Notes: generated from the sequence alone by a model not told the origin. A stretch of DNA of 64,000 nucleotides from an uncultured Thermodesulfatator sp. (GCA_964581255.1 CAZOMT010000010.1:176156-240155), one strand, 5' to 3'; shown: positions 19,536 to 43,160, counted from the stretch's first letter. Made by a program: numbers and translations.

Positions 19536-19549
19536 CTGTCTTGCCTTTC

Positions 19550-27042: not shown

Positions 27043-27600
27043 ATGGAAAATGAATCGCGATTCATAAACGGGGTAAAGGGTCTGATCTTCACCATCGACC
27101 ACGTTAGCGAATTGATGGGGAAGGCGGTCTCCTGGTGTTCCTTGCTATTGGTAATCCTGGTCACATTGAATGTGATACTTCGCTACGCCTTCAATATCAG
27201 TTTTGTATTTGCCGAAGAGATGCAGTGGCACCTTTATGCCCTCATATTCCTTTTGGGCGCAGGATACACATTGAGATACAACGGCCACGTAAGAGTTGAT
27301 GTCTTTTATCAACGCCTTGGCAAAAGGGCACGGGCATTCATAAATGTAATGGGTTGCCTCCTATTCCTCTTTCCAGGTTGCTTTCTTGTGATAAAGACCT
27401 CCATTCCGTTTGTGGAATCTTCCTGGGCCATGCAAGAGGGCTCAGCCGACCCTGGTGGCCTGCCTTGCAGATACCTGCTGAAAGCTGTCATCCCCCTTGC
27501 CTTTGCCCTCCTTTCCATACAAGGCCTGTCCATGTTTCTGAAAAGCCTTTTTACATTGTTTGGAAGGCCTATCCCTGACCGGAAGAAAGGGGGCATCTAA
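27043..27600 (+). CDS. dctQ: TRAP transporter small permease (DctQ family)
   Basis: 185-aa four-TM protein. Its stop overlaps the start of the large-permease gene. Confidence 0.8.
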   Translation: MENESRFINGVKGLIFTIDHVSELMGKAVSWCSLLLVILVTLNVILRYAFNISFVFAEEMQWHLYALIFLLGAGYTLRYNGHVRVDVFYQRLGKRARAFINVMGCLLFLFPGCFLVIKTSIPFVESSWAMQEGSADPGGLPCRYLLKAVIPLAFALLSIQGLSMFLKSLFTLFGRPIPDRKKGGI

Positions 27601-28919
27601 TGGATTATCTAGCCGCATGGATGTTTCTTACCTTAACCATCCTCCTTCTTGCGGGTTTTCCTGTGGCCTTCACCTTACTGGGCACTGCCCTTTGCTTTGG
27701 CCTGATAGGATTTGGCTGGGATTTTTTCAACCTTCTACCCATGAGGATTTGGGGTGTAATTACAAACTTTACCCTTGTAGCAGTGCCATTGTTCATATTC
27801 ATGGGGGTCATGTTGGAACGTTCCGGCATAGCAGGCGACCTGCTGAAAAGCATGGGGATGGCTTTTGGTAGGATAAGAGGCGGGCTTGCAGTATCTGTTG
27901 TAGTGGTGGGAGCCCTTCTTGGTGCCTCCACAGGTATAGTTGGTGCTACTGTTGTCACTATGGGCCTGCTTGCTCTGCCCACCATGATAGAATATGGCTA
28001 CAGAAAGGAACTTGCCACTGGAACCATAGCATCATCAGGAACTCTGGGGCAAATAATCCCACCGAGTATCGTTCTGGTGCTCTTGGGGGACATAATAGGG
28101 GTTTCAGTGGGGGATCTCTTTATAGGGGCTGTTATACCCGGCCTCATATTGGTAATTCTATATGTTATCTATATCCTTGTGACTTCCTGTTTGCATCCCG
28201 ACTGGGCTCCACCAATCAAGGATGACACATTCAAGGAAGAAGGACGGTCTTTTGCACTATATCTCTTGAAGTCATTGATTCCGCCGCTGTCACTGATGGT
28301 CGCTGTCCTTGGTTCCATCTTTGCAGGTATTGCCTCGCCCACAGAAGCTGCAGGCGTAGGAGCGACTGGGGCTACTCTTCTTTGTATCTTGAACAAACGC
28401 TTCAACATGGATGTACTCAGGACTGTCATGGAGACTACGGTTCAGCTCACAAGCATGGTCTTCATCATATTGGTAGGCGCAACGGCATTTGGGCTGGTCT
28501 TCAGAGGGCTCGGAGGTGATATTGTCATAAGGCAGTTTGTCACCCACATCCCTTTTGGGAAATGGGGGGTGCTGGCCACTGTAATGGCTGTTATCTTCAT
28601 AGCAGGTTTTTTTCTGGACTTCATTGAAATCACCTTCATTCACATACCAGTGCTTGCTCCCCTTATGAAGACAATGGGATTTGACCCTGTATGGTTTGCA
28701 ATTCTTTTTGCGGTAAATCTGCAAACCTCTTTTCTCACGCCACCCTTTGGTTTCTCGCTATTCTATCTTAAAGGTGTCGCGCCGCCAGAGGTATCCACTG
28801 TCCAAATCTATAAGGGGATTATACCCTTTGTGGCCATTCAGCTGATTGGACTGTTTATAGTGGTGCTTTTTCCTGAAACAGCAACTTGGCTGCCACGGCT
28901 CATGAACTCCCTGAGATAG
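27600..28919 (+). CDS. dctM: TRAP transporter large permease (DctM family)
   Basis: 439-aa polytopic protein with DctM-like blocks (AVPLFIFMG, GGLAVSVVV, TLGQIIPPS, FGFSLFYLKG). Confidence 0.9.
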   Translation: MDYLAAWMFLTLTILLLAGFPVAFTLLGTALCFGLIGFGWDFFNLLPMRIWGVITNFTLVAVPLFIFMGVMLERSGIAGDLLKSMGMAFGRIRGGLAVSVVVVGALLGASTGIVGATVVTMGLLALPTMIEYGYRKELATGTIASSGTLGQIIPPSIVLVLLGDIIGVSVGDLFIGAVIPGLILVILYVIYILVTSCLHPDWAPPIKDDTFKEEGRSFALYLLKSLIPPLSLMVAVLGSIFAGIASPTEAAGVGATGATLLCILNKRFNMDVLRTVMETTVQLTSMVFIILVGATAFGLVFRGLGGDIVIRQFVTHIPFGKWGVLATVMAVIFIAGFFLDFIEITFIHIPVLAPLMKTMGFDPVWFAILFAVNLQTSFLTPPFGFSLFYLKGVAPPEVSTVQIYKGIIPFVAIQLIGLFIVVLFPETATWLPRLMNSLR

Positions 28920-29335: not shown

Positions 29336-30193
29336 CTACCTTTCCTTGTTGTTTTCCAATTTTTCATCTGTTATCACATTTCTGTTCCTTTTTGTGGCAT
29401 CTACCTCAAGCTGTGGCACCTGGCTGTAATGGCCGTGTCTCAGGGAGGCACGCACTTTCTGGAGCAGCCTGCGCCGTGAAACACGAGGAGAACGCCTTAA
29501 GTGTTTATTGAAGTAGTAGGTAAATGCCCCGTGAAATCGGCCATTTATATAGGCATCTGCAGATGTCTGATCTGCCCTGCAACCTGCCCATAAAATGTGG
29601 TGTTTCCTTTTCCTCCTCTTGGCACCTTCTATGAATCCTCTATATTCCAACTCATCCTCCTCGCCTGAAAAGCGCAATAGCAGATCGGTGGGAGGTGGGA
29701 GATAGCGGCTGATAATTTTAGGCTCTTCATCTTCGACAGGAGGTTCAAGTCCTATATTTCTGAGCCCGGTTCCTGAATGACAAGAATCCAGGACTACTTC
29801 GAGCAAAGCACCTGCTGGCACATTTTTGAGTATGCTATTTAGTTCGTCGTCTGTGATATAGGTGCCGCTCCAGTCCATGTCATAGGGACAGATGAGCTCA
29901 TCCAGGTGGTCCACCAGTTCATCACCATCCCTGTCCCTGATCTGGGACCCATGGCCTGAAAAGTGGAAAAAGAGGAAATCCCCTGGTTTGGCATCGTCCA
30001 CCAACCATCTAAGACGCGCCAAGATATTGTCTTTGGTTGCCCTACTGTCAGTAAGGACCCTGATCTCCTTTGTCTTGAACCCAAATAGGCTTCTGAGGGA
30101 AAAGTGCATGTCCAATACATCGTTGATACATCCTCTCAAATCGTTGACCTTTTCGTAATCGTTTATCCCTACGAGCAATGCCTTCCTACCCAT
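29336..30193 (-). CDS. Orthocaspase / caspase-fold (C14) cysteine peptidase with p20- and p10-like regions
   Basis: ALLVGINDY, catalytic His in FFHFSGHG, catalytic Cys in VLDSCHSG, and a p10-like ILWAGCRADQTSADA...GAFTYYF. AAGGAG RBS. Confidence 0.85.
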   Translation of the reverse strand: MGRKALLVGINDYEKVNDLRGCINDVLDMHFSLRSLFGFKTKEIRVLTDSRATKDNILARLRWLVDDAKPGDFLFFHFSGHGSQIRDRDGDELVDHLDELICPYDMDWSGTYITDDELNSILKNVPAGALLEVVLDSCHSGTGLRNIGLEPPVEDEEPKIISRYLPPPTDLLLRFSGEEDELEYRGFIEGAKRRKRKHHILWAGCRADQTSADAYINGRFHGAFTYYFNKHLRRSPRVSRRRLLQKVRASLRHGHYSQVPQLEVDATKRNRNVITDEKLENNKER

Positions 30194-30230
30194 TTTTAGT
30201 CTCCTTTGGTGTACTGGGACATGCCAGATT

Positions 30231-30713
30231 TCACTCTTTGGACATGTCTGGCAGTTGCCCTGCCTTTCGTTCGTATATGAAGGCAGGAGTTACGAATATC
30301 CAGCGTTGCGGTTCGCCTTCCTTTTTCGTTTGGATTAGCCAGGCCTCACGGCCTGGTGAACCGTCATACACGAATACCGGTTCTTGAAGGGTCTCTCCTT
30401 CCTCTATGGGGACTGTCGAAACTACCCGTTCAAGTGCCTCCTTACCTGACAAGCCGGTGACCATTGACGCCCCGTTTAGGGCGCCAATGGCTGCAACTTC
30501 ACCGGTGCCGGTAATTCTGGCAAACCCCTTCAGCTGACCACTTGGTTTTATGGGCACCAGCCAATAGCCAGGGTTGCCTTGCAGGTCCCTCACAAGTACC
30601 GGCTCTCCAATGACGACACTGTTCCACTGGGAAAATTCCAGTTCACCACTCATGCTTAGCATTAAAGCTGCATTAAGCGCCTTCTTCTTTGCCTCTTCCG
30701 CAGAAATGAACAT
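30231..30713 (-). CDS. 160-aa hypothetical protein with two PepSY/prodomain-like repeats, paralogous by eye to the N-terminal region of the upstream peptidase
   Basis: ISAEEAKKKAL...EPVLVRDLQGNPGYWLVPIKPSGQLKGFARI and LSGKEALERV...EPVFVYDGSPGREAWLIQ. Likely ATG at 30713. Lies 17 nt after the upstream stop. Confidence 0.55.
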   Translation of the reverse strand: MFISAEEAKKKALNAALMLSMSGELEFSQWNSVVIGEPVLVRDLQGNPGYWLVPIKPSGQLKGFARITGTGEVAAIGALNGASMVTGLSGKEALERVVSTVPIEEGETLQEPVFVYDGSPGREAWLIQTKKEGEPQRWIFVTPAFIYERKAGQLPDMSKE

Positions 30714-30730
30714 CAATGCATTCCTTTAGC

Positions 30731-31978
30731 TCAATGACACGTTTGAGTACGATGTCTTACATAGATAAAGTTGGTATGGGTTACAGCATTCCAATTTTCC
30801 CAATATACCCGTCCACCCTTGCATGGATCCGGGTTCCAAGGCCAAGGGTCATAGATCTTGAGCCATCGCTGGAGAGGCTGCCATATCAAGTGAAAATTCT
30901 GCCGCTTCCACCCGGCACAAGCCCTGGCATGGCCTGGGATACCTGATTTTAAGGGTCTGTTTGCATTTATTTCTGCCTGGGCTTCAACCCAGTTGGCGCT
31001 TGTATCGAGCGTGGCATCCAGACAGCCCTTTGAAAGGCTCTCATATCCTGTGACCTGTCCATTGAGGGTTGTACCGCCAGGGCCGGTACCCATAGCGTAG
31101 GCAATCTGATCCTGACTGAAGTAATACCTGTAAAAGTCAAGGATCATCTGGCCTGTTGCCACTGCGCAATAGACACTTGTCTTTTGCCCCCTGAGTTCGA
31201 AACAATCGTGGGGCGTACACCTTGGCGCATACCGCAACACCCTCCAAGAGTAAAAGGGTATGGGTATTGGGGTGGGACTCAAGGGATGGACCGGCTGAAT
31301 AGATGCAGCTATGGATGCCTTCAGATCCTTCAGTTCCTTAGAGCTAAAACCTCGGTCAAAGGCCCTTGGTATCCTGTCTTTCATGATCTCCAGTTCCTTG
31401 TCGGAAAGGTCCCAGAGGTATTCCCTCTTGGCAGCCTCAGGATATGCATATTCATGGTAAAAGGAATAGACGCCCGAGCCTTCTTCTTCGTGGTCGCTGA
31501 AGATCTCCACTTCAGATCCGTTTGAGACGTCGAATATGGTTGCCTGTTCAGTGCCGTCAGGCTCGCTGAAAAACACCCTTATCCCTATCCGGGGATAGCA
31601 ATAGCAAACCACATCCACATCCTTGATCTCTGCCTTGGGATATTTTTCCTTTACCTTTTTTTCAGCTTGTTTGGCCGCCTTGTCTGGATCCCATGACCTT
31701 TTTCCAAATTCTACAGTGACTATGGGGCTTCCCAATGCCCGGCTGGCACTCGCCTTGACTGTTCCAGACTCCTTTTTGCCATTGATCACCTTGAACTCGT
31801 AGAACAGTATCTCGCCATTCAGGTCATTGATCTCAAGAGGCTCTGGATCTACTTCACAGGCACCCCAAGGTTCCAGATCCCGTACCTGCCCTGCCCATTC
31901 TTTCCGTATTGTCATGAGCGCGTGTTCGTATGCACGTCCCTTGTCAACTGGACTCAATGGTTCCTTGTAAACCTTCAT
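30731..31978 (-). CDS. Papain-fold (C39-like/C1-like clan CA) cysteine peptidase with a ~250-aa N-terminal prodomain-like region
   Basis: Q-x5-C signature GQKTSVYCAVATGQMIL, later GIPGHARACAGW (His) and IYDPWPWNP (Asp/Asn). GGAGGAG RBS. Confidence 0.65.
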   Translation of the reverse strand: MKVYKEPLSPVDKGRAYEHALMTIRKEWAGQVRDLEPWGACEVDPEPLEINDLNGEILFYEFKVINGKKESGTVKASASRALGSPIVTVEFGKRSWDPDKAAKQAEKKVKEKYPKAEIKDVDVVCYCYPRIGIRVFFSEPDGTEQATIFDVSNGSEVEIFSDHEEEGSGVYSFYHEYAYPEAAKREYLWDLSDKELEIMKDRIPRAFDRGFSSKELKDLKASIAASIQPVHPLSPTPIPIPFYSWRVLRYAPRCTPHDCFELRGQKTSVYCAVATGQMILDFYRYYFSQDQIAYAMGTGPGGTTLNGQVTGYESLSKGCLDATLDTSANWVEAQAEINANRPLKSGIPGHARACAGWKRQNFHLIWQPLQRWLKIYDPWPWNPDPCKGGRVYWENWNAVTHTNFIYVRHRTQTCH

Positions 31979-32027
31979 GTTTTTCTCCTCCTTCTTTTTT
32001 GTCTTACCCTTGGTTAACTTGATATCT

Positions 32028-32071
32028 GGCCCTGCCTGCTAGGCCCTCTCTATCCTTGCACAGGCAGGGCC
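32028..32071 (-). promoter_or_regulatory. GC-rich 11-bp perfect hairpin in the predicted 5' leader of the protease operon
   Basis: GGCCCTGCCTG-22 nt-CAGGCAGGGCC, between the sigma-54-type promoter (about 32097-32110) and the RBS/ATG at 31978. Confidence 0.5.
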
Positions 32072-32095
32072 GCGCCTACCCTTCGATGGTGTTAT

Positions 32096-32112
32096 TGCCA
32101 CTTTTGTGCCTT
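32096..32112 (-). promoter_or_regulatory. Sigma-54 (-24/-12)-type promoter facing the protease operon
   Basis: Minus strand reads AAGGCACAAAAGTGGCAAT. GG (32110/32109) and GC (32098/32097) are separated by exactly 10 nt, fitting TGGCAC-N5-TTGC at 11 of the 15 consensus-aligned positions; the 10 specified consensus bases match at the core residues GGCAC and T-GC. Lies about 120 nt upstream of the ATG at 31978. A sigma-54 activator gene is adjacent. Confidence 0.55.
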
Positions 32113-32247
32113 ATGGCCGAATTCAAAAAATTTTTTTAAAATCGTTGATTAATTAATGGTTTTTATTGAAAAAACCGATTAAACAAATTCTTTGACCCAC
32201 ATTGTTTCTCGGATTATTTCGTAAACCTTATAGACATTTTTGGTTTT

Positions 32248-32270
32248 ATATGTAAACATTCTTTACATAT
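32248..32270. promoter_or_regulatory. Perfect 9-5-9 palindrome: candidate activator-binding site (UAS/operator)
   Basis: ATATGTAAA-cattc-TTTACATAT. Lies about 150 bp upstream of the -12 element and 25 bp upstream of the activator's own ATG. A second AT-rich palindrome, TTAATGGTTTTTATTGAAAAAACCGATTAA (32155-32182), and an IHF-like AATCAACGATTTT (minus strand, about 32141-32153) lie in between. Confidence 0.4.
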
Positions 32271-32294
32271 TCATGAGAATGGAGAATAACCCTT

Positions 32295-33851
32295 ATGAAA
32301 TCAACGGATAATATCTCCCTGTCTAAAGACGACTTTTCCCTCTTTTATGAGATCTCCACCTCTATCCAGGAAATTTGCGATCTCGATGAAATGCTTCACT
32401 CTATCCTTTCAAAGATCAAAAAGGCCTTCCATATAGAAGGGGTGTCTGTCGTGCTCCATGATCCAGAGAACAAGGAGTTTTATTTTTTGAGGGCTGCTGA
32501 ATCGGAGATGGGTCTTGATCCGCTTCGTATGCATGAGATGAGATTCCCAGATGACGTAGGGGTCGCTGGATGGGTTATGAGGGAGGGCCAAACTGTGGTT
32601 ATCCAAAACGTGGCCAGGGACGAAAGGTTTTTCAGCGGTCTCGATAACAAAAAGGGCTTTGTGACAAGATCTATGATATGCGTACCCCTCAAGACCAGGA
32701 GAGGTTTTACAGGCGTTTTATACGCACTCAACAAGATCCAGGGTAGTTTCTCTGAAAAGGATGCCAAGATCCTGGAGATCCTTTCCACTCCTATTGCAAT
32801 CTCCATTGAAAACGCTCGTCTTTACGGAGAACTAAAACGGCATGCAGACATCCTTGAAAGGCAAAACCGCCATCTGTGCAGCAAGGCTCAGGAAAGATTC
32901 AATAAAGAGGGGATTATTGGCAGGAGCGGTCCCATGCGGCAGCTCTTTTCATTGATCGACAAGGTGATAGACACCCCCACCACAGTGTTGATACAGGGAG
33001 AAACAGGTACTGGCAAGGAATTGGTCGCAAGGGTCATTCACTTCAGTGGCCCTTTGAAGGACAGGCCATTTGTTGCAGAAAATTGTGGCGCTCTTCCTGA
33101 AAATCTCCTGGAAAGTGAATTATTCGGCCATGTCAAAGGTGCCTTTACCGGTGCAACATCCGACAAGAAGGGACTCTTTGAGATAGCAGACGGCGGCACT
33201 ATATTTCTTGATGAAATAGGAGAGATGAGTCCGGCTATGCAGGTGAAGCTCCTTAGAGTGCTCCAGGAAGGCCAGATCCGGCCAGTTGGCTCCAACCGTT
33301 TCCGCAAAGTCAACGTGCGAGTCATCGCGTGTACCAATAGGGATCTGGAGCATGAAGTAAGGAGGGGAAGATTCAGGCAAGACCTGTTGTACAGAATAAA
33401 TGTATTCCCAATAACCGTTCCTGCACTCAGGGAAAGAAGGGACGATATACCCCTTCTTGTGGACCACTTCTTGAAAAAGGCAGCGGAAAAATTACACAGG
33501 CCTGCACCTACTGTCTCTCCTCTGGCCATGGATTTGCTTCTTAATTTCGACTGGCCTGGAAATATCAGGCAACTCGAAAATGAGATGGAGAGGGCATTGA
33601 TCCTTGCAGGTAGTTCATTGGAAATCGGGCCTGAACATTTGTCATTGAGATTGCAGCAGGATCTAGGATTCGACGGCCCCAAAGGCAACGAGGGGGCTTC
33701 ATTGAAAGAGGTGGTTCAAAGATTGGAGGCGGGAATGATCGAAAGGGCCCTATCCAAAACTGGTGGAAACAGGTCAAAGGCAGCTCGTCTCCTTGGGCTT
33801 ACCCGCCAAGGCTTGATAAACAAGATCAACCGCTACGATTTGAAGATCTGA
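32295..33851 (+). CDS. Sigma-54-dependent transcriptional activator (GAF - AAA+ - Fis-type HTH)
   Basis: N-terminal GAF-like domain. Walker A GETGTGKE, ESELFGHVKGAFTGA (GAFTGA loop), and the C-terminal HTH GGNRSKAARLLGLTRQGLINKI. Confidence 0.9.
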   Translation: MKSTDNISLSKDDFSLFYEISTSIQEICDLDEMLHSILSKIKKAFHIEGVSVVLHDPENKEFYFLRAAESEMGLDPLRMHEMRFPDDVGVAGWVMREGQTVVIQNVARDERFFSGLDNKKGFVTRSMICVPLKTRRGFTGVLYALNKIQGSFSEKDAKILEILSTPIAISIENARLYGELKRHADILERQNRHLCSKAQERFNKEGIIGRSGPMRQLFSLIDKVIDTPTTVLIQGETGTGKELVARVIHFSGPLKDRPFVAENCGALPENLLESELFGHVKGAFTGATSDKKGLFEIADGGTIFLDEIGEMSPAMQVKLLRVLQEGQIRPVGSNRFRKVNVRVIACTNRDLEHEVRRGRFRQDLLYRINVFPITVPALRERRDDIPLLVDHFLKKAAEKLHRPAPTVSPLAMDLLLNFDWPGNIRQLENEMERALILAGSSLEIGPEHLSLRLQQDLGFDGPKGNEGASLKEVVQRLEAGMIERALSKTGGNRSKAARLLGLTRQGLINKINRYDLKI

Positions 33852-33858
33852 AGAAAAA

Positions 33859-36120
33859 ATGCAAGGGACGCACCCAAGGAGCTTGCACAAATTTTATAAA
33901 TGGCGGCTAAACATCAAAAGTGTCGCGATCTTCTCGTTACTGGTGATATCTTCTGGATTTCTTTGTGCCCTCTATCCGCCTTTGTCCCAAAAGGCCCTGG
34001 AGGCGGATCTTGCCACGTGGTTCAGGCTCAGGCAATTCAAGCCCAGCCCTGAAGATGTGGTCATAGTAAACCTTGACAGTGAGTCCGGGGCCAGGCTTGG
34101 CCTGCCACCAAGTCCTGAAAAATGGCCACGCACCATCTACGCCAAGCTAGTTGAACGCCTTGCAGACCTTGGCGCCCTATCAATCGTGCTTGACGTCCAT
34201 TTTTCAGATGTAAAAAATCTTGAGGAAGACCTGGTCTTTGCAAAGGCAATCAAACAGGCCGCCAGTGTCGTGCTCTTTGAATATACCAACAGAAGGCTTA
34301 TCAAGCTTGATGCCGTAAGGGAAAACGGCCTTCCAAAAATCGCAATAGAAACCGCCATCCCGCCACTGCCTGTTCTTGCTTCTGCTGCTGTGGCTACCGC
34401 TCCATTTCCCTTGCCAAAGGTACCTGTCCGTCTAAACCGTTTTTGGACCTTCAAGTCTAGCCTTGGAGACGTGCCTAGCCTGCCAGTTGTGGCCCTATAT
34501 CTCTATGTGTTCAATAAGGAAAAAAGGCTCAAGGATAAGCTTTCTGAATTGTTTCCTGACCTTTTCCAAGAATTTGAAGATATGAGAAACGTGAAGCTGT
34601 TGGCACTGAGATTGAGACAGTATCTTCTTCTCAATAAAGGAGCTGCGGAAAGGGCTTTTAATGAGTTGGATCATGATGTGGCCCTCAAGATGGAAGAAAA
34701 AAGGCTCTTAAAGGTATTGATCTATACGGCAGCAGGTCCTGAAAGCCCCTTTTTGAACTTTTACGGCCCTCCTGGGACCATCCTTACCATACCATGCAGC
34801 ACGGTGTTGGCAGAGGAGTCAAGTGAGGAGCTCCTCATTAACAATATCAAGGGTCGTGTAGTCTTTGTGGGAGCTGCAACCAAGAATCCTTCGGAGCAAA
34901 AGGATGGCTTCTACACGGTCTACACTCGGCCTGACGGCCTCGATCTCAGCGGGGTAGAGATCGCTGCAACTGCCTTTGCCAATCTCCTGAACCAAGAATC
35001 TGTAAGGCCTGCGACAGCCTGGATGCGTGCCTTAATAATCGTGGCTTGGGGGCTATTTGTCACAATGGTCGCCTTTTTCCTGCCTCCAGTATTTTCTGCC
35101 CTTACATTCACAATGGGCGCTGCCACTTATGTGTATGGTGGCCTTGTCGCCTTTACAACAAAGACCATATGCCTACCTTTTTGGCTGCCTGTGATATTTC
35201 CATGTGTTCCAGCATATGGGTTCATGGTTTTATGGCAATACAGCAGGGTCAGAACAGAAAGAAAAAACATCAGCAAGGCCTTTAGCCACTATTTGCCATC
35301 AAAGGTGGTGGATACCCTTGCCAGGGACCGTACATTCATTAATAGGCCGCCTCAGTTACTCTATGGCGTCTGTTTAATGACAGATGCAGAACAATACACG
35401 TCCCTTTCAGAGCATATGGAACCTGGGGAATTGGCAAGGTTCATGAATCAATATTACGAGCATATCTTCGAGCCTGTAAAAAAGAATGGGGGGGTAATTT
35501 CAGACGTGTTGGGAGACTCCATGCTGGCAATCTGGACAGGAGCTGAACCAAACGTCAGGCTAAATGCATCTGCAATAAAGGCTGCGCTCGAGATCATGGA
35601 AAAGGTTCGAGACTTTAACAAAAAAAACAATCAGTCCATACAGCTCCCCACCCGTATAGGCCTCCATTCAGGACACCTTGCCCTTGGGCATCTCGGCACA
35701 CCTGACCATTTTGAATTTACTCCAATAGGCGATATCGTAAACACGGCCTCCCGCATAGAAGGCCTCAACAAATACTTGGGCACCAGGATCTTATCTTCTG
35801 GGGATCTGTTATCTCTGAATAATGGATTCCTCGTAAGAGAACTAGGCAGTTTCCTTTTAGCTGGCAAATCCAAACCAATTGTGATATACGAAATCTTAAG
35901 CACAATTGAAGAATCGACACCGTTTCAACGCCAACTGTGCAACTCTTTTGGCCAGGCATTGAGAAAATTCAGGGAGAGGAATTGGGATGAGGCTGCTAGG
36001 GGCTTTATGGAATGCGGAATAGATGGACCAGCCCGCTTCTATCTAAAATTGTGCAACGCCTACCTGAAAAATCCGCCCTTGGAAGACTGGACAGCTACTA
36101 TCAGACTGGATAGAAAATAG
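33859..36120 (+). CDS. CHASE2 sensor domain - class III adenylate/guanylate cyclase
   Basis: N-terminal TM, then a ~330-aa extracytoplasmic region (VIVNLDSES...VLDVHF, typical of the start of CHASE2) and three TM helices. Cyclase core is CLMTDAEQYTSLSE...GDSMLAIW...IGLHSGHLALG...IGDIVNTASRIEG. Starts 8 nt after the activator gene. Confidence 0.85.
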   Translation: MQGTHPRSLHKFYKWRLNIKSVAIFSLLVISSGFLCALYPPLSQKALEADLATWFRLRQFKPSPEDVVIVNLDSESGARLGLPPSPEKWPRTIYAKLVERLADLGALSIVLDVHFSDVKNLEEDLVFAKAIKQAASVVLFEYTNRRLIKLDAVRENGLPKIAIETAIPPLPVLASAAVATAPFPLPKVPVRLNRFWTFKSSLGDVPSLPVVALYLYVFNKEKRLKDKLSELFPDLFQEFEDMRNVKLLALRLRQYLLLNKGAAERAFNELDHDVALKMEEKRLLKVLIYTAAGPESPFLNFYGPPGTILTIPCSTVLAEESSEELLINNIKGRVVFVGAATKNPSEQKDGFYTVYTRPDGLDLSGVEIAATAFANLLNQESVRPATAWMRALIIVAWGLFVTMVAFFLPPVFSALTFTMGAATYVYGGLVAFTTKTICLPFWLPVIFPCVPAYGFMVLWQYSRVRTERKNISKAFSHYLPSKVVDTLARDRTFINRPPQLLYGVCLMTDAEQYTSLSEHMEPGELARFMNQYYEHIFEPVKKNGGVISDVLGDSMLAIWTGAEPNVRLNASAIKAALEIMEKVRDFNKKNNQSIQLPTRIGLHSGHLALGHLGTPDHFEFTPIGDIVNTASRIEGLNKYLGTRILSSGDLLSLNNGFLVRELGSFLLAGKSKPIVIYEILSTIEESTPFQRQLCNSFGQALRKFRERNWDEAARGFMECGIDGPARFYLKLCNAYLKNPPLEDWTATIRLDRK

Positions 36121-36195
36121 CTGCTCCTGCTTTTCGATTTCAAGGCTGGTTTCTATCTCTTGAAAAAAACAAAAGGCCCTCGGATGTGAGGTGTT

Positions 36196-39100
36196 ATGGA
36201 GCAAAAGACCAAATTATCCATAAGTATCCTAATCATATTTATTGAAATCATATTCTTCTTTGGCTTTGCAATAGGCCAAGAAAACAGACCAGAAACAGGG
36301 ATAGGGAAACTGGTATCTCTTAGAGGGGAAGTCCAGATCCAACGAGCGGGAAGTAGGCTATGGCAGCCTGCCAAGCTCCATGAGCAAATTTTTCCAGGAG
36401 ACATATTACGCACAGGCCCAAATAGCAGGGCCGCACTGCTACTGGCAAATGATTCCGTGGTGCGCCTTGGAGCCAACACATCCTTAGTGGTTTCAGGCAA
36501 GCAGAAAGCTTCTACCACCTTCATGAAACTTCTCAAGGGCGTGGCCCATTTTTTCAGCCGCTTTCCTCACAGTCTTGAGATCTCCACACCATTTGTGAAT
36601 GCTGCCATAGAAGGTACGGAATTTACCATCCACGTCCTTGAAGACAAAACAAATATCACTGTCCTGAATGGACGTGTCAGGGCAAGCAACGATTCTGGAA
36701 GTGTGGTTCTTGGCCCGAACCAGGCCGCAGTAGCATCCAAGGGTGCCAGGCCACAGAGTAGAATCGTACTAAACCCAACGGATGCTGTTCAGTGGGCCCT
36801 CTATTATCCTTCCGTACTTGATTTGACATGTGAAAGCATGGAAGGCCCAGGAGCAACAGACGTAAAAAGCGCTGTATCACTCTACAGGCAAGGCAATGTC
36901 ACACAAGCCATCAATGAACTTTCAAAGTTGCAGAATGGCTATCGTCAAGCATGGATTCAGGTGCTTATCGCCAGCATGTACCTTTCTGTGGGCCAGGCAG
37001 AAAAGGCCATGGTCCACCTTGACAAGGCCGAAGACATTGAACCGGGATTTGGCCCTGCAATGGCCATTAGGGCCATCATGGCCGTGGCCCAAAACAAGAA
37101 ACAAGAAGCCCTCTTGCTTTCTGCCAAGGCGATGTCCTTGGCCCCTTCTTCTGCGTCTCCACTGATTGCACGATCTTATGCCCTTCAGGCAGTATTCAGG
37201 CCAGAAGATGCCCTTTCAGTGCTCCAAAAGGCAGTTGTACTTGAGCCAAGAAACAGTCTTGCTTGGTCAAGGTTATCGGAATTGTGGCTTTGTGTCGGTG
37301 AGGTTTCAAACTCTGTTGAGGCAGCAACAAAGGCCGAGGCCCTGGACCCTTACAATGCCCGATCCAAAACCGTTTTGGGCTTTTCCTTGTTGGCTAGCCT
37401 TGATACAGAAAAGGCCATAAGTTCATTCAAAAAGGCCATAGAGATGAATCCTTCGGATCCTCTGCCACGATTGGGCCTTGGCCTTTCAAGGATAAAGGAT
37501 GGAGATGTGGACGAGGGCTTGGTGCAACTGGAGATAGCTGCTGCCCTTGATCCCGCCAATGCACTTATTAGGAGTTATCTCGGCAAGGCCTACTATGCCA
37601 AGTGCCGGCCAGAAAAGGCAGCTGCCCAGTTTGAGATGGCCCGCCGGCTCGATCCCAAAGACCCGACACCCTGGTTCTATGATGCCATACTCAAACAAAG
37701 CATAAACAGGCCTGTGGCTGCCCTCAAGGATCTTCAAAAATCCATAGAGCTTAACGACAACAGGGCCGTATACAGGTCTCGTCTCCTTCTGGACCAGGAT
37801 CTGGGAAGTAGAAGCACAAGCCTTGCCAGGATCTACAATGACCTGGGATTCGACCATTTGGCCTTGGTTGAGGGCTGGAAGTCGTTGGATTACGACCCTG
37901 GATCCTATTCTGCCCACCGTTTTCTGGCAGATTCTTATACCGCCTTGCCAAGACACGAAATCGCAAGGGTCAGTGAGCTTTTGAAATCTCAGCTGCTCCA
38001 GACCCTGAATATTGTACCCGTCCAACCCTATTTAGCAGAGAGCAAGCACTTTTTTTACACGGATACAGGCCCTTCGCTGCCTTCATATAACGAGTACACT
38101 CCGCTATTCATGTCAGACAGGCTGGCACTTCAAGCCAATGGCCTTGGCGGAACCAGGGGAACCTGGGGAGACGAGGTGGTGCAGGCCGGCCTTTTCAAAA
38201 GATATTCCTATAGCTTGGGTCAATTCCACTACGAGACCAATGGTTTCCGCCAGAATCAAGATCAGCGTCAAAACATATACAACGCATTCGTCCAGTCGGC
38301 ACTAGGGCCTCAGATAAATGTCCAGGCAGAATATAGACATCTACGGATAAAAAAGGGTGATCTATTCCTGCGTTTTGATCCAGAAAACTATTTCCCAGAC
38401 TTGAGGGATGATGAAAAGAGAAATTCATTGCGCTTGGGCATGACATACAGATTTGGGCCCGAAAACACGTTCCTGTCGTCCCTTATATTGGCTGAGACAG
38501 ATTGGCATACCAAGATTTTCCCAGAATATATCATAACAGATGAAGAAAGGGGCTTTCTCGCAGAAATTCAACACCTTTACAACGGGCCCAAGTTCAGTCT
38601 CATAACAGGGGCTGGCTGGTTTAAGACCAATCAGGAAATATCCCATGTTTTTGCGCCCTTTCAAGAGATTTCAGAAAGAGACACAATCCATCAGACAAAC
38701 CTCTACACTTATCCCCGGATCCGTTTGGGACATGGCTTGGTCCTTACCATTGGAGCCAGCGCAGATTTCTATGAGGGTACTGCAGGTAGCAGGGAACAGT
38801 TCAATCCAAAACTTGGACTTGTTTGGAATCCTTCTCCAGATACCACTATACGAATCGCAGGTTTCAGGGTCTTAAAGCGCATGCTCCTTACTGACCAGAC
38901 CGTGGAGCCCACAGAAGTCGCAGGCTTCAACCAGTTCTTTGACGACTATGAAGGCACCAGGAGCTGGCGTTATGGGTTTGGTGTGGACCAGCGCATCTTT
39001 TCCAATATCTATGGAGGCTTCGAGCTCAGTAGAAGAGACCTCGATGTTCCATACTTGGATTTTGAACTCGACAAGGTACTATATGCAGACTGGCGAGAAG

Positions 39101-39531
39101 ATCTTGTCAGTACCTACCTCTACTGGATAGCCTCCAACCATCTTGTGACCTCTGTCCAGTACCAATATGAAAGATTCAAAAGAAAGGACTACCAGCCTGG
39201 AGAAGAGGATATTGTATCTTTGAAGACCCACAGGTTGCCACTGTCTATAGGCCTTTTCCTTCCAGCTGGTTATGGAGCAAAGCTTACCACTACCGGAGTG
39301 TGGCAGTCTGGTCTCTTTGGCAACAAGAAAACAGGTATCTATCCAGGAGAGGACCATTTCTGGATAGTGGATCTTTCCCTGCGCTATAGGTTGCCTAAAA
39401 GATATGGAATGTTGGAGTTTAAGGCCAAAAATCTCCTGGATCATCACTTCAGGTTTCAGGACACTGATCCGTCAAATCCGAGCATATGTCCCAAACGTCT
39501 ATTGTTTGCTAGAATCACACTCTGGTTCTGA
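36196..39531 (+). CDS. 1111-aa envelope protein: signal/anchor - FecR-like domain - long TPR array - C-terminal beta-barrel-like domain
   Basis: Hydrophobic N-terminus. FecR-like region GKLVSLRGEVQIQRAG...IFPGDILRTGPNSRAALLLANDSVVRLGANTSLVV. Repeated TPR-like A/L/Y helices span about aa 230-600. The last ~470 aa alternate in a beta-strand pattern and end ...ARITLWF, the aromatic terminus typical of OM barrels. Confidence 0.7.
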   Translation: MEQKTKLSISILIIFIEIIFFFGFAIGQENRPETGIGKLVSLRGEVQIQRAGSRLWQPAKLHEQIFPGDILRTGPNSRAALLLANDSVVRLGANTSLVVSGKQKASTTFMKLLKGVAHFFSRFPHSLEISTPFVNAAIEGTEFTIHVLEDKTNITVLNGRVRASNDSGSVVLGPNQAAVASKGARPQSRIVLNPTDAVQWALYYPSVLDLTCESMEGPGATDVKSAVSLYRQGNVTQAINELSKLQNGYRQAWIQVLIASMYLSVGQAEKAMVHLDKAEDIEPGFGPAMAIRAIMAVAQNKKQEALLLSAKAMSLAPSSASPLIARSYALQAVFRPEDALSVLQKAVVLEPRNSLAWSRLSELWLCVGEVSNSVEAATKAEALDPYNARSKTVLGFSLLASLDTEKAISSFKKAIEMNPSDPLPRLGLGLSRIKDGDVDEGLVQLEIAAALDPANALIRSYLGKAYYAKCRPEKAAAQFEMARRLDPKDPTPWFYDAILKQSINRPVAALKDLQKSIELNDNRAVYRSRLLLDQDLGSRSTSLARIYNDLGFDHLALVEGWKSLDYDPGSYSAHRFLADSYTALPRHEIARVSELLKSQLLQTLNIVPVQPYLAESKHFFYTDTGPSLPSYNEYTPLFMSDRLALQANGLGGTRGTWGDEVVQAGLFKRYSYSLGQFHYETNGFRQNQDQRQNIYNAFVQSALGPQINVQAEYRHLRIKKGDLFLRFDPENYFPDLRDDEKRNSLRLGMTYRFGPENTFLSSLILAETDWHTKIFPEYIITDEERGFLAEIQHLYNGPKFSLITGAGWFKTNQEISHVFAPFQEISERDTIHQTNLYTYPRIRLGHGLVLTIGASADFYEGTAGSREQFNPKLGLVWNPSPDTTIRIAGFRVLKRMLLTDQTVEPTEVAGFNQFFDDYEGTRSWRYGFGVDQRIFSNIYGGFELSRRDLDVPYLDFELDKVLYADWREDLVSTYLYWIASNHLVTSVQYQYERFKRKDYQPGEEDIVSLKTHRLPLSIGLFLPAGYGAKLTTTGVWQSGLFGNKKTGIYPGEDHFWIVDLSLRYRLPKRYGMLEFKAKNLLDHHFRFQDTDPSNPSICPKRLLFARITLWF

Positions 39532-39565
39532 CAAGATCCAGGGATAAGAAAAGGAGGAGACTAGT

Positions 39566-39802
39566 ATGAGCGAAAAAAGACACAACAAGGCGTATTTCAA
39601 GGTATTGTACGACAAGGAGGGGGAAGTGATAGGGGTAGAGCCCCCAAAAGGAAAAGAGGTGAGAATACTAAACGAATGTGATCTATACAGAGAGCCCCTA
39701 AAAGACATAAATGGCATCAAGGCCACACTTATAATCTCGCGACCGGGAAACACCCCATGCTGTGTCAAGGCTGGCAGATGGCTTTGGTGCTGGTGCCTGT
39801 AA
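39566..39802 (+). CDS. 78-aa hypothetical protein with a C-terminal Cys/Trp-rich tail
   Basis: Strong RBS (AAGGAGGAG, 8 nt before the ATG). Lies 34 nt after the barrel gene. Ends ...RPGNTPCCVKAGRWLWCWCL. No signal peptide is visible. Confidence 0.5.
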   Translation: MSEKRHNKAYFKVLYDKEGEVIGVEPPKGKEVRILNECDLYREPLKDINGIKATLIISRPGNTPCCVKAGRWLWCWCL

Positions 39803-39825
39803 TGTACCTGGATATCAACAACGGA

Positions 39826-39849
39826 CCAGGGGCGGCTCAAAGCCCCTGG
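39826..39849 (+). terminator. 8-bp GC hairpin after the small ORF (terminator-like, no U-tract)
   Basis: CCAGGGGC-ggctcaaa-GCCCCTGG. Lies 24 nt after the stop. Confidence 0.3.
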
Positions 39850-40086
39850 ACATCAAGAGCTTGTCTTAAGGCTGCCTCAGACTCGAAGCTGATTTGTTCA
39901 AAACGGCTGATATAACGAGCCATGACAGTTTTTGGAAGATACCCATAAGGCCCAGGAGGAGTCAGGGCTGCCCCTCATGCCTTTGAGCTGCCTGAAAAAT
40001 CCGTATCGACAGGATAACTACGGTTATTCTTTTCTTGGGCCTTGTGCCTGAATTGAAATTACAGATTGCACACTGAAAGAAGATAC

Positions 40087-41664
40087 CTATCTCGTGGGTA
40101 GCTCAGGAGTGGGTTGGGCGTTGTCCATCTGCTCATCCTTTCCCGCGATGCCATGACACTTCTGATAAAAGGGGCAATTTTTGCATTCATGGATCTTTTC
40201 GGCGTAAGTGCCCATCACCCTGCCTTCGCACATTGTCCCTGCTATGGCCCAGCATATGCGTCCAAAATATGGATAGGCTGGGCACCGACGCGTAGGATCC
40301 TTTTCAATGCCGCACTTGATATATTGCCAGCACTGGGTCTTTTTGTCCTCTTCTTCGCTTTGATAGGGGAAGTGGAGGGTAAAGGTGGTTCCTGTGTCCT
40401 CGTCACTCTTGACTTCTATAAAGCCCCTGTGCTCTTCCAGGATCTTTTGCACAATGGCCAGTCCCAGGCCAGTTCCTACCCCAATCTTCTTGGTTGAATA
40501 AAAAGGCTGAAAGATGAGAGCCAGCTTTTCCTTGGGTATGGGCCTTCCAGTATTGTTTATGGAGACGATGACCCAGAGGACCTCGTTTTGCATCTTTGTC
40601 CCTGTAGTTACCGATATGGTGCCTCCTTCGTGGCTCACTGCATCTATTGCATTGGTTATGAGGTTTCCAATGGCCTGTTTTATTTGGTCGTAATCAAAAT
40701 AGACCCTTGGAAGATCTGGCATATAATTTTCAATCAGACGTATCTTTTCTGTTTGGCAAAGATCACAGAAAAATTCCACTGCATCCCTGACAGGCTCATT
40801 TATGTCACCACGTTTGAGTTCAAAGCGAAATTGTTCGGAGGACAATATCATGACATCCTTGAGTATTGCCTCAAGCCTTTCCGCCTCGGCGAGAATGACC
40901 CTTAGATATTCCTTTTCTTTTGTGCCTTCTTTGATGTGTTTATCCAGACGCCTGGCCATGCCTCCGAGTGCCGATAACGGATTTCTTATCTCGTGGGCAA
41001 TGTCGTAGGTGAGCCTGCCCATAGCTGCCAGTTTTTCCGCCTCGATGAGCCTCGACTGCATGCGTTTGAGATATTCTATGGACTCTTCAAGGCGTCTGTT
41101 CAATTCCTCAATCCTTTTCTTGTCTCGCCTGAGCTTTTCTGAAAGAAGACCGAGAGGTATTGCGATAAGATATAAGAAAGCGATCCTGAGAGCCTGGTCT
41201 GTCCAGTGGATGGTGCCCAAGTAGGGTATGATGTTCACCAGATACATTATGCCAGAAATGGTGGCCACAAGGGCACCGAACTTGGGTCCAAAATAAAAGG
41301 TGTGAAGCGCTGTGAGCAGGTAATATCCAAGAAAGAAGCTATTGTTGAGATCCCTGTGGAAACTCACAAGGAAGAACACGAAAACCATGTCAAGGAAGAG
41401 GGAAGCTATATAGGCATATCTTATCTTCTCAGGCCGTTTGAATATGTAGATATATAGGAGACTGCTGTAGATAGAGAAGGCCACAAGGGCCTTGGCAAGA
41501 TCTCCCCTTTCCTTGTTTGAAAGGGGGGCCAGTAGCAACCAGGCGATCCCACCAAGCACTGTGACAATCCTGAGCACGAGAAAACCCAGATCTATGACGC
41601 CAAGGGGTCCACATGCCCTTTTGATGGTCTCTTTCAGGTGTTCGCTCAGGGTCCTCTTTGCCAT
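40087..41664 (-). CDS. Membrane sensor histidine kinase with a C-terminal Cys-rich domain (two 'CW' motifs)
   Basis: About 5 TM helices. H-box YDIAHEIRNPLSAL, N-box LITNAIDA and G-box GTGLGLAIV. Tail is QCWQYIKCG...RRCPAYPYFGRICWAIAGTMCEG...HECKNCPFYQKCHG, with 9 Cys. Confidence 0.85.
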   Translation of the reverse strand: MAKRTLSEHLKETIKRACGPLGVIDLGFLVLRIVTVLGGIAWLLLAPLSNKERGDLAKALVAFSIYSSLLYIYIFKRPEKIRYAYIASLFLDMVFVFFLVSFHRDLNNSFFLGYYLLTALHTFYFGPKFGALVATISGIMYLVNIIPYLGTIHWTDQALRIAFLYLIAIPLGLLSEKLRRDKKRIEELNRRLEESIEYLKRMQSRLIEAEKLAAMGRLTYDIAHEIRNPLSALGGMARRLDKHIKEGTKEKEYLRVILAEAERLEAILKDVMILSSEQFRFELKRGDINEPVRDAVEFFCDLCQTEKIRLIENYMPDLPRVYFDYDQIKQAIGNLITNAIDAVSHEGGTISVTTGTKMQNEVLWVIVSINNTGRPIPKEKLALIFQPFYSTKKIGVGTGLGLAIVQKILEEHRGFIEVKSDEDTGTTFTLHFPYQSEEEDKKTQCWQYIKCGIEKDPTRRCPAYPYFGRICWAIAGTMCEGRVMGTYAEKIHECKNCPFYQKCHGIAGKDEQMDNAQPTPELPTR

Positions 41665-41789
41665 ATATTCGCCTGGAAGCCTTTTGGGCCTCCAGGTCCT
41701 CCTTCAGGTTTCACCAGATGGAGCCCTCTTGCCCCATGACAAAAAGGCCCCAGCTTCTGTATTTGCTTAAAAAGCAGTTAAGGAAAGAA

Positions 41790-42875
41790 TTAGAGCATGG
41801 AATCATAATAGGATTTCTCAGAAATCTCGTTCCAGGCTGCCAACTTCTTCTTGAAGGCCATGAAATCCTCATTCACCTTTTTTGCCAGGGGGTCCTTGGC
41901 GGCAGTTTCCGAAATGGTCTCTGCGGCAAGCCTTTTGAGGCCTTCCATGACCTCATCTGGAAATCGCAATAGCTGAATCTTGTGGGACCTTTTTAACTCG
42001 GCCAAGGCCTTTGCGTTTTCTGTTTCAAATTCCGATAGCATGGTCACGTTGAGTTCAGCCGCTGCAGTTTCCACAGCCGCCTTGATATCGGCTGGTAAGG
42101 CTTCATATGCCTTCTTGTTCATGATGAATTCCAAGGTGCTGCCAGGTTCATGCCATCCTGGATAATAATAGTACTTGGCAACCTTGTAAAAACCCATTCT
42201 TATATCGTGGCATGGGCCGATCCATTCGGTGGCATCGATAACACCCCGTTCAAGAGATGTATAGATCTCCCCTGCAGGCAGAAGCACCACTGCGCCTCCA
42301 GCCTTGGCAAGCACCTTTCCCCCAAGGCCAGGGATCCTCATCTTGAGTCCCTTGAAATCCGCCATGGAATTTATCTTCTTGTTGAACCATCCACCCATCT
42401 GAAAGCCAGTGTTGCCAGCCGGCCGAGGCACCAGATTGAAGGGCTTGTATACCTCTTCCCAGAGCTTAAGACCATTTCCAAAATAGAACCAGGCATTCAT
42501 GCCCTGGGCATCCATCCCAAAGGGGACACAGGTGAACCACTGGGCAGCATTGCATTTGCCAGCCCAGTAGTATGCCGCACTGTGGCCACAGTGCACAGAG
42601 CCAGATGAAACTGCATCAAACACACCAAGGGGAGGAACGAGTTCTCCTCCTGCATAGACCTGAATGGTAAGCCTGCCATTTGTGAGTTCCTCAACCCGTT
42701 TTGCAAAACGTTCCACTCCAGTCTGAAGTATAGGGAAGGCAGGAGGCCATGAGGTCACCATTCTCCATCTTATCTTCTCACTGGATGTGGCTTGTGCAGA
42801 TCCTGCGCCTAAGGCTGACGCTGCAACCGCTGCTCCTGCAATAGCTCCCTTTTTGAGCAAATTTCGCCTGTCCAT
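41790..42875 (-). CDS. dctP: TRAP transporter substrate-binding protein (DctP family) with a twin-arginine-like signal peptide
   Basis: ATG at 42875 (AGGAGG RBS) gives MDRRNLLKKGAIAGAAVAASALGAGSAQA, and the body is DctP-like. The track's upstream start is rejected. Confidence 0.85.
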   Translation of the reverse strand: MDRRNLLKKGAIAGAAVAASALGAGSAQATSSEKIRWRMVTSWPPAFPILQTGVERFAKRVEELTNGRLTIQVYAGGELVPPLGVFDAVSSGSVHCGHSAAYYWAGKCNAAQWFTCVPFGMDAQGMNAWFYFGNGLKLWEEVYKPFNLVPRPAGNTGFQMGGWFNKKINSMADFKGLKMRIPGLGGKVLAKAGGAVVLLPAGEIYTSLERGVIDATEWIGPCHDIRMGFYKVAKYYYYPGWHEPGSTLEFIMNKKAYEALPADIKAAVETAAAELNVTMLSEFETENAKALAELKRSHKIQLLRFPDEVMEGLKRLAAETISETAAKDPLAKKVNEDFMAFKKKLAAWNEISEKSYYDSML

Positions 42876-43160
42876 AAAAAACCTCCTTATCTGTTCTTGT
42901 GTGAAAAAAGTATTTCTTACCTGTCCCCTTATCCTGTTTTTGAAGAAATCGAGCAAATTTCATGGCACAGGTTATGGACCTTATACGTCTGTCGTATGGG
43001 GAACGCAATACGAAATGGTTCAAAACCGCAAATCAATGCCACCTGTGCCTGTTTTTTTACTTTTCTCTTTTTTTAAGTTGCGCGCTCCTTTTTTTCACCT
43101 AAAATATCTTGAATCTTAGCATTAATACCAAGCCTTAAATTTGATGGCCAAAAACAAGCG

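Follow-up and report, generated by a model that had tools for sequence, protein, structure and literature searches.

A small protein with a Cys- and aromatic-rich C-terminal hairpin, encoded beside NsrA-like outer-membrane receptors, as a possible partner of these receptors

Here we describe a gene for a 78-residue protein, located at positions 39566-39802 of a 64,000-nucleotide stretch of DNA from an uncultured Thermodesulfatator sp. (GCA_964581255.1 CAZOMT010000010.1:176156-240155), called the window below. An earlier interpretation of the DNA, referred to here as the sequence-only reading, had singled it out as the last gene of a sensor operon, with a C-terminal tail rich in Cys and Trp. 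We find that this small gene is a near-obligate companion of one orthogroup of NsrA-like outer-membrane receptors, and that the linkage holds in both directions. The protein is modelled as a small beta domain ending in a hairpin, and we tentatively favour the possibility that it is a cognate protein partner or signal of the adjacent receptor. The elements of the gene are the following.

39551-39559, + strand: Shine-Dalgarno sequence AAGGAGGAG, read from the sequence, 6 nucleotides 5' of the small-gene ATG
39566-39802, + strand: small-protein gene, ATG at 39566-39568 and TAA at 39800-39802, 78 codons plus stop
39752-39799, + strand: C-terminal hairpin, codons 63-78, TPCCVKAGRWLWCWCL, delimited from the AlphaFold secondary structure and the conserved columns
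39826-39849, + strand: GC-rich stem-loop with an 8-base-pair stem, CCAGGGGC-N8-GCCCCTGG, 24 nucleotides past the stop, without a T-run

The translated protein, MSEKRHNKAYFKVLYDKEGEVIGVEPPKGKEVRILNECDLYREPLKDINGIKATLIISRPGNTPCCVKAGRWLWCWCL, terminates in CCVKAGRWLWCWCL, with four Cys and three Trp within the final 14 residues, which is the tail composition that the sequence-only reading had described. Its account of the gene signals also stands: the ribosome-binding site is strong and the spacing tight, since AAGGAGGAG precedes the ATG by 6 nucleotides and the gap to the barrel gene upstream (TGA at 39529-39531) is 34 nucleotides, and the position is terminal, the small gene closing the + strand run in front of a convergent neighbour (40087-41664). 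The protein starts with MSEKRHNKAYFKV and reaches a peak 12-residue hydropathy of 0.4; as had been claimed, no Sec or lipobox export signal is present in the window protein, and hydropathy reveals in it neither a hydrophobic N-terminal segment nor a transmembrane (TM) helix.

The claim that this is a real gene is borne out by its orthologues and by the comparison of synonymous with non-synonymous change. A word-indexed protein search returned one identical entry and one homologue of 85 residues with 73% identity (locus L001), and a scan of genome contigs, for which a two-sequence alignment served as query, returned solely a third orthologue of 77 residues with 86% identity (L005), from a Deltaproteobacteria metagenome-assembled genome. 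Between the window and L005, substitutions at codon positions 1/2/3 amount to 6/5/34, with a proportion of synonymous differences (pS) of 0.63, a proportion of non-synonymous differences (pN) of 0.079 and a ratio of the corresponding rates (dN/dS) of about 0.06. For L001 the counts are 18/9/45, with pN 0.17 and a saturated pS of 0.84, dN/dS being not computable. The DNA 3' of the open reading frame (ORF) is unalignable between the window and L005. The substitution pattern indicates that the + frame of the ORF is under strong purifying selection. As the substitutions are mostly at third positions and dN/dS is about 0.06, an overlapping antisense ORF at 39499-39840 is spurious, and was ruled out as a gene.

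Because no sigma-54 promoter precedes the small gene in the eight loci examined, the gene is probably co-transcribed with the barrel gene. At the other end, the segment 39800-39870, which includes the stem-loop between the convergent genes, folds with -20.7 kcal/mol (z = -1.95), and the stem-loop at 39826-39849 may be the transcript end between these genes. A terminator scan called no canonical terminator after the ORF, the stem-loop likewise being uncalled, and Rfam gave no match on 39000-40300.

The genes that precede the small gene in its operon are listed below.

32295-33851, + strand: sigma-54 enhancer-binding protein with GAF, AAA+ and HTH domains (Pfam)
33859-36120, + strand: CHASE2 and class III nucleotidyl cyclase protein, 753 residues (Pfam PF05226 and PF00211, hydropathy)
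36196-39531, + strand: NsrA-like outer-membrane receptor, 1111 residues (Pfam, termini)

Starting from the small gene, the direct 5' neighbour is an orthologue of this barrel protein in every related locus with upstream DNA, which represents about ten independent lineages, so the supposition that homologues follow FecR-TPR-barrel genes proved correct. The upstream orthologues share 43-54% identity over their full length where they are whole, and 47-73% over C-terminal fragments in L005 and L021. Wherever the DNA extends that far, a CHASE2 cyclase gene lies 5' of the barrel gene. The GAF-sigma-54 activator is found in most, not all, of these loci, either upstream or convergent downstream, and L015 has a SulP-STAS-cNMP_binding protein in its place. 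A divergent trio of genes for a caspase, a C39-like protein and a 161-residue protein, adjacent to the operon in the window, is shared only with L001, the closest relative examined, and is absent from L009, L012, L015, L016 and L019, distant loci that were read on both sides. The conserved core is therefore limited to the cyclase, the barrel and the small protein; the reader of the cyclic nucleoside monophosphate (cNMP) is interchangeable and the proteases are lineage-specific.

The linkage was also counted from the barrel. A metagenome scan with the C-terminal 300 residues of the barrel protein as query gave at least 491 relatives, the best 80 of which (44-55% identity) were taken; 75 of these loci have at least 330 nucleotides of downstream DNA and form the base of the count. 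Judged by position and tail hallmark, a small partner on the same strand lies downstream of the barrel in about 68 of the 75 loci (about 90%). Its start is usually 80-175 nucleotides past the barrel stop, an AGGAGG-type Shine-Dalgarno sequence precedes nearly all homologues, and the partner ORFs mostly encode 60-130 residues, 11 of them 270-330.

A profile of the subfamily closest to the window protein, named CWC after its C-terminus, matches the downstream ORF in only 12 of the best 80 loci. The partners nevertheless share a layout: an N-terminal beta-hairpin, a linker, and then a strand, (S/T/N)PxC, an aromatic strand, a G turn, an aromatic strand and an optional Cys before the C-terminus. 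Variant tails include ...THTNPTCGYYYFNGKWWYR, with one Cys, as well as ...YTPNGCCWKKIGGVWKCVPC, ...LQSNPCIWVNAIGSWYYICW, ...SSPGHWCVIGGQRRWCPW and ...ENPTCYWYWDGRQYRRYCW. Of 60 unique short ORFs, 52 fall in one BLAST single-linkage cluster, and hhalign aligns the CWC and GYYYF groups, the two largest subfamilies, over 63 collinear columns (E = 6.8e-5, probability 64%). These comparisons provide evidence that the downstream ORFs with variant tails form one family. Moreover, the type of tail tracks the barrel phylogeny.

Two loci depart from the simple arrangement. L034 has two more paralogues of the small family past the first (2517-3349, +; E = 2.7e-5 and 3.8e-2), and in L016 an extra 55-residue ORF (9830-9997, +) is inserted between the barrel and the small gene. 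Furthermore, an orphan, extended Shine-Dalgarno-like element, G[GA]GGTG(AT), occurs in 48 of the 62 unique spacers that separate the barrel stop from the small gene (L008-L100), whereas shuffled sequences average 4.3. It lies 17-47 nucleotides past the barrel stop and about 78-95 nucleotides before the small gene's own Shine-Dalgarno/ATG (L009 9877-10000 and L012 9874-10000 are examples), and a mini-ORF of 1-7 codons (ATG TAA; ATG AGT TAA; ATT CGT AAT ACT ATA GAT TAA) often comes next. Element and mini-ORF may provide start-stop, leader-peptide or ribosome-standby control of the small gene. The element is absent from the window spacer (39532-39565), having been lost in the window lineage.

Within the closest subfamily the search for homologues that the sequence-only reading had proposed was productive: among 1.84 billion representatives the profile gave 49 matches, about 30 of which are proteins of 68-95 residues, the remainder being RCC1-like repeat proteins matched in the hairpin region only. 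The small proteins align end to end, with the consensus YFxVxFDxxGxVIGVEPPxG ... IIsKpGxSPCCIxxGGxxWCWC-COOH. C75 and W76 are invariant, C65, C66, C77, G19 and G29 are at least 90% conserved, and the SP and GG positions are conserved as well; the C-terminus is exactly CWC in most members and CW-PP-C in a few. The tail CC...WLWCWC, whose conservation had been in question, is thus retained in this subfamily as CC...CWC, with the Trp between the last two Cys and the SP and GG positions, but not in its WLW segment, which becomes WEW, KYY, IIW or VRY in other members.

In the AlphaFold model the entire chain is structured as a small beta fold (predicted local distance difference test score, pLDDT, 87), in line with the beta-rich sequence noted before, and the N-terminal part folds together with the tail (pLDDT about 90). 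The protein is thus predicted to be an all-beta domain of about 65 residues whose extreme C-terminus forms a rigid hairpin rich in Trp and Tyr, and, as the whole chain is structured, it is not a leader-plus-core peptide. The predicted strands span residues 63-69 and 72-75 around a turn at G70-R71, with C66 paired with C75 across the strands; the remaining conserved positions of the hairpin are C65, W76 and C77. On this model C66 and C75 would staple the two strands, and C65 and C77 would form a second pair in the CWC subfamily, provided that the disulfides form.

In most branches of the wider family, the two Cys that correspond to C66 and C75 flank the hairpin in cross-strand register, and the tails mostly contain even numbers of Cys in that register, which is the pattern expected from disulfide staples. 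One large branch has no second Cys and carries a Tyr/Trp zipper instead, its member L039 retaining the second Cys. The Cys4 arrangement of the tail is therefore dispensable beyond the closest subfamily, since this large branch has a single-Cys, all-aromatic hairpin.

The sequence-only reading had recognised no family, and indeed Pfam and NCBIfam gave only sub-threshold noise for the window protein, 33 family members and 12 members of the second subfamily. Foldseek found no structural neighbour of the predicted fold in the PDB (best E = 2.6, template-modelling score at most 0.25), and a search of PDB sequences with the family profile gave nothing under E = 1. Membership in DUF2283 (PF10049) was rejected, as two of 33 members match with a best E of 0.077, under the Pfam gathering threshold, and so was a likeness to AgrD (E = 0.089, sub-threshold noise). 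The zinc-ribbon, rubredoxin and desulforedoxin types were set aside as well, the motif being CC-x8-CxC and not CxxC knuckles, with no match in Pfam, the PDB or by fold. No paralogue of the small protein occurs in the window or in the first 17 loci, and tblastn of the protein against PLSDB plasmids gave no match.

The partners differ in their export signals. A Sec signal peptide or lipobox is present in about one quarter, and about three quarters, including the window protein, have none. The short signal-bearing partners are those of L041, L045, L056 (LVLGC), L060, L079, L083 and L098, and the barrel clade ending in ...ALP, ...AIP or ...AFP has secreted partners of 270-330 residues with a Cys-flanked terminal hairpin. 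A profile built solely from signal-less members and searched against 6500 six-frame ORFs, where noise sets in at E of about 0.3, recovers the lipobox protein of L056 (E = 3.8e-6) and, over nearly its full length, that of L098 (E = 6.5e-6), with L045 (E = 1.8e-3) and L079 (E = 6.9e-3) as borderline matches. On the barrel tree the short signal-bearing forms are scattered among signal-less neighbours, so the signal has been gained or lost repeatedly.

The sensor module itself is of a known kind. The cyclase has a TM segment at 17-35, a periplasmic CHASE2 domain, TM segments at 385-447 and a cytoplasmic cyclase domain at 506-673. The receptor consists of a signal peptide, a FecR domain (70-162), TPRs (about 220-530) and a beta-barrel (about 660-1111) that ends in a beta-signal, ...ARITLWF. 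It shares about 23% identity, across 83-96% of length, with an S. (Sinorhizobium) meliloti FecR-domain protein encoded on pSymB, which we take as NsrA by its position and size. The operon thus combines the features of an NsrA-type module, a FecR-bearing barrel and an adjacent CHASE2 class III cyclase. No CRP-type (Clr-like) gene is found in the module; the GAF-sigma-54 activator stands in its place and is the probable cNMP-responsive output regulator.

In S. meliloti, NsrA and the CHASE2 cyclases CyaK and CyaD1/D2 sense a protein signal, the free ribosomal protein uL2, which is also present and active in extracts of bacteria and yeast and is supplied by their lysed cells, with output via cyclic AMP and Clr (PMC7529298, PMC13001267). 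The likeness to the window lies in the full-length barrel relative adjoining a CHASE2 class III cyclase. The gene order, however, is barrel-cyclase in S. meliloti and cyclase-barrel in the window, and the output is Clr, of the CRP family, in the former and the GAF-sigma-54 activator in the latter. The family profile has no match at the nsrA locus of S. meliloti. In Campylobacterota, a cluster of a CHASE2 adenylate cyclase, a FecR-domain outer-membrane protein, a TPR protein and a phosphodiesterase was inferred to be a single pathway (PMC9239204). The same sensor domains are clustered there, but the TPR protein is separate whereas it is fused into the barrel protein in the window, the phosphodiesterase has no counterpart in the window module, and no small hairpin-tailed protein is described. 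The Burkholderia 'BiofilmReg' operon encodes a LysM-FecR protein, a CHASE2 histidine kinase and, as fourth gene, a DUF4136 protein of unknown function (PMC5192318). It resembles the window operon in having a FecR envelope protein, a CHASE2 sensor and an extra gene at its end, but its output is a kinase, its FecR protein is not a barrel, and its extra gene is a DUF4136, whereas the window family matches no Pfam entry.

The hairpin also has a likeness to disulfide-stapled or Trp-zipper beta-hairpin peptides such as protegrin, tachyplesin and thanatin, several of which bind outer-membrane or Lpt/Bam proteins by strand augmentation. Short two-stranded hairpins, cross-strand Cys pairs and many aromatics are common to both. 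These peptides, however, are secreted, processed, eukaryotic and 17-21 residues long, whereas the window hairpin is the C-terminus of a folded bacterial protein of 70-90 residues without a processing site, and we found no sequence relationship between the family and such peptides. The family tail (...C-x-V-K-x-G-G-x-L-W-C-W-G/C) also resembles the blade hairpin of RCC1 propellers, found in many repeat proteins. The match, to multi-repeat proteins, spans about 25 residues and excludes the N-terminal two thirds, and the family contains a single hairpin and no propeller. Membership among RCC1 repeats was rejected, as a single hairpin-length match in proteins of 68-95 residues contrasts with the tandem blades of about 50 residues of RCC1. 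Finally, necrosignals and the sensing of kin lysis, as with AcrA-TolC in Escherichia coli swarms and the response of Pseudomonas aeruginosa to kin lysate, would share with the present system, by analogy, the concept of a protein from dead kin read at the outer membrane of survivors; we know of no dedicated receptor-linked signal gene in necrosignal systems. In the literature searched and in the domain libraries, the small third component is not described.

The genes divergent from the operon are the following.

29336-30193, - strand: caspase C14 (Pfam; best NCBIfam match below cut-off)
30231-30716, - strand: 161-residue protein (no Pfam or NCBIfam match)
30731-31978, - strand: C39-like protein, 415 residues (weak sub-threshold Pfam match; none in NCBIfam)
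32096-32111, - strand: candidate sigma-54 promoter AGGCAC-N5-TGGCA, facing the C39-like, 161-residue and caspase genes

The three products of this operon (29336-31978) are without signal peptides and cytoplasmic. The best NCBIfam match of the caspase, below cut-off, is 'caspase, EACC1-associated type' (E = 1.1e-13), a type tied to conflict and cell-death systems. Both the window and L001 have -24/-12 elements of the sigma-54 type some 120-135 nucleotides 5' of the caspase operon, beside the gene of the GAF-sigma-54 activator; the L001 counterpart, TGGAAC-N5-TGGCA at about 2334-2349 (-), is similarly placed. With at most two mismatches the motif occurs 50 times in the window against 40 expected, and the site at 32096-32111 alone is not significant. 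The candidate promoter suggests that a cNMP signal could turn on the caspase operon in the window lineage. A different element, TGGCA[CT]-N5-TTGAT, is conserved where the sigma-54 activator gene is convergent downstream of the small gene (L009 12175-12805, L012 11919-12574, L019 6869-7541). It precedes a divergent gene whose product, 106-114 residues long, has a signal peptide followed by a mature N-terminus rich in His (HHNGRHN, GHNNHMEWHYH). This product recalls the ZraP-type, sigma-54-dependent periplasmic metal/stress proteins and may be the output of the pathway in those lineages.

The seven-gene module (29336-39802) is flanked by TRAP dctQ/dctM genes (+) and by a histidine kinase gene and dctP (-) (27043-28919; 40087-42956). 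Past the small gene, L001 carries wholly different DNA, with GmrSD-like and other genes. The shared gene order thus breaks off precisely at the small gene, which gives the module the look of a mobile or insertable block. The convergent AtoS/ZraS-like histidine kinase (40087-41664, -) has a Cys-rich stretch of about 60 C-terminal residues past its ATPase domain, without Pfam cover, and the same extension is found in L005 (846-2387, -): ...CWQYIKCGIEKDPTRRCPAYPYFGRICWAIAGTMCEGRV...CKNCPFYQQC. The L001 contig also encodes a reverse gyrase (18836-20258, -; zf_Rg, DEAD, Toprim and Topoisom_bac), which hints that the lineage is thermophilic.

Of the four roles put forward in the sequence-only reading, a ligand, or a cargo or plug, of the barrel/CHASE2 sensor fits best. 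On this tentatively preferred reading, the hairpin and free C-terminus of the small protein would be contacted by the receptor at the barrel or at its periplasmic TPR/FecR part, binding would alter the activity of the CHASE2 cyclase, whether by activation or by inhibition, and the sigma-54 activator would sense the cNMP through its GAF domain, a task that in some relatives would fall to another cNMP-binding protein. The protein would act outside the cytoplasm, through secretion or through release from damaged or lysed kin cells. This location is favoured because the window protein has no export signal while some homologues carry Sec or lipoprotein signals; the exported homologues contradict a strictly cytoplasmic role, as do the one- and two-Cys branches, in which no Cys4 site can form, and a strictly periplasmic role conflicts with the lack of an export signal in most of the family, the window protein included. 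The free cytoplasmic uL2 sensed by S. meliloti NsrA/CyaK offers a precedent for a receptor of this type that responds to a released cytoplasmic protein.

Several points weigh against this reading. Like about three quarters of the family, the window protein lacks a signal peptide, and release by lysis is an assumption; no conserved exporter lies near the small gene in the related loci. Co-inheritance of adjacent genes would by itself make the tail type track the barrel tree. The lineages are probably anaerobes, which makes disulfide formation uncertain, and where a cytoplasmic protein has four invariant Cys, a metal site is the more usual explanation. The isoelectric points of the family are scattered (median 6.7), so it has no consistent charge, unlike the basic uL2, and a charge-based analogy to uL2 was dropped for this reason. 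Lastly, the lack of a homologue at the nsrA locus of S. meliloti shows that a receptor of the NsrA type can function without a partner of this kind.

The main alternative, which we hold to be somewhat unlikely, is a cytoplasmic regulator of the cyclase. In it the Cys4 of CC...CWC would bind a metal (Zn, Fe, Cu) or act as a redox or sulfide switch, and the protein would dock on the cyclase, either at its cytoplasmic catalytic domain or at its C-terminal extension, so that an intracellular input joins the envelope signal. In its favour, neither the window protein nor most of its relatives have a signal peptide or TM segment, no exporter is conserved in the neighbourhood, and each of the four Cys is kept by all, or by at least 90%, of the members of the CWC subfamily. 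Desulforedoxin offers a precedent for metal ligation by vicinal Cys, and the roughly 80 cyclase residues after the catalytic domain are a possible docking site. However, the Sec and lipobox homologues present in several barrel lineages cannot act in the cytoplasm, one large subfamily has a single Cys and others two, so that Cys4 is not a family-wide function, and there is neither a CxxC knuckle nor a zinc-ribbon or rubredoxin relative by sequence or fold. The lipoprotein and periplasmic homologues would suit instead a structural partner in the periplasm or outer membrane, which we consider quite improbable: a trans plug, co-receptor or pilotin-like assembly factor engaged through beta-strand augmentation and not a diffusible signal. 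Many tails terminate in C-[W/F/Y]-COOH, and such endings are reminiscent of outer-membrane-protein beta-signals. The barrel, moreover, resembles those of TonB-dependent receptors yet has no cis plug domain, the near-obligate pairing is one to one and the pair co-diversifies, and the Burkholderia LysM-FecR/CHASE2-kinase operon likewise has an extra gene, of DUF4136 (PMC5192318). A stoichiometric envelope subunit, however, needs a signal for crossing the inner membrane, which the window protein and most of the family do not have, and about 70 residues are few for a plug.

The proposal of a modified or lipidated peptide fares worse. As the precursor of a ribosomally synthesised and post-translationally modified peptide (RiPP), the protein would have a leader in its N-terminal 55-60 residues, and its Cys/Trp tail would be a core released by cleavage after cross-linking, prenylation or acylation. 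The C-terminal position of the Cys/Trp-rich segment is as expected of such a core, the neighbours show weak NCBIfam matches, far below cut-off, to TIGR04510 and TIGR03903 (peptide-modification cyclase/TPR proteins), and a C39-like protein is encoded nearby in the window lineage. But that gene is not conserved, and no radical-SAM protein, cyclodehydratase, YcaO, lanthionine synthetase (LanM), prenyltransferase or ABC exporter is conserved beside the homologues. The N-terminal part folds with the tail (pLDDT about 90) and persists after the signal peptide in exported homologues, and conservation is highest in the tail scaffold, whereas most RiPP cores show the reverse. Taken as a whole, the protein resembles a folded domain, and we regard a precursor peptide as very improbable. 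An EMVGG tail in the L001 orthologue was rejected as a double-glycine site, being found in L001 only. The idea of a substrate of the nearby proteases is weakened in turn. A protein that regulates the caspase or C39-like peptidases or serves as their substrate, for instance as a pro-peptide whose cleavage accompanies activation, would fit the divergent protease operon close by in the window and L001, behind a sigma-54-like promoter that the module's activator could drive; the caspase and C39-like genes are, however, shared only with L001 and absent from all the more distant loci that keep the small gene, which is tied to the barrel and not to the proteases. Such a role seems scarcely probable, and the least so of the readings weighed here.

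Returning to the preferred reading of a cognate partner or signal, a more specific form of it, which we think unlikely but worth stating, is a receptor-linked signal of kin damage. The small protein would be abundant and cytoplasmic, its hairpin would become disulfide-locked after release from lysed or attacked kin or, in branches with a signal peptide, after secretion, and the NsrA-like receptor of neighbouring cells would read it and pass the signal through the CHASE2 cyclase to a cNMP/sigma-54 programme, including the caspase operon in the window lineage. If true, it would be the first ligand known to be self-encoded for a sensor of the CHASE2/FecR type, and would define a bacterial danger signal in molecular terms.

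To our knowledge, few natural ligands have been identified for CHASE2 sensors or for the FecR-domain proteins that partner them. The one worked example, NsrA/CyaK, answers to a protein from other cells, and the small family described here is a concrete candidate for the missing partner or ligand. Its hairpin, with a Trp/Tyr zipper, putative Cys staples and a free C-terminus, is a compact natural scaffold that may be of interest for binding outer-membrane proteins.

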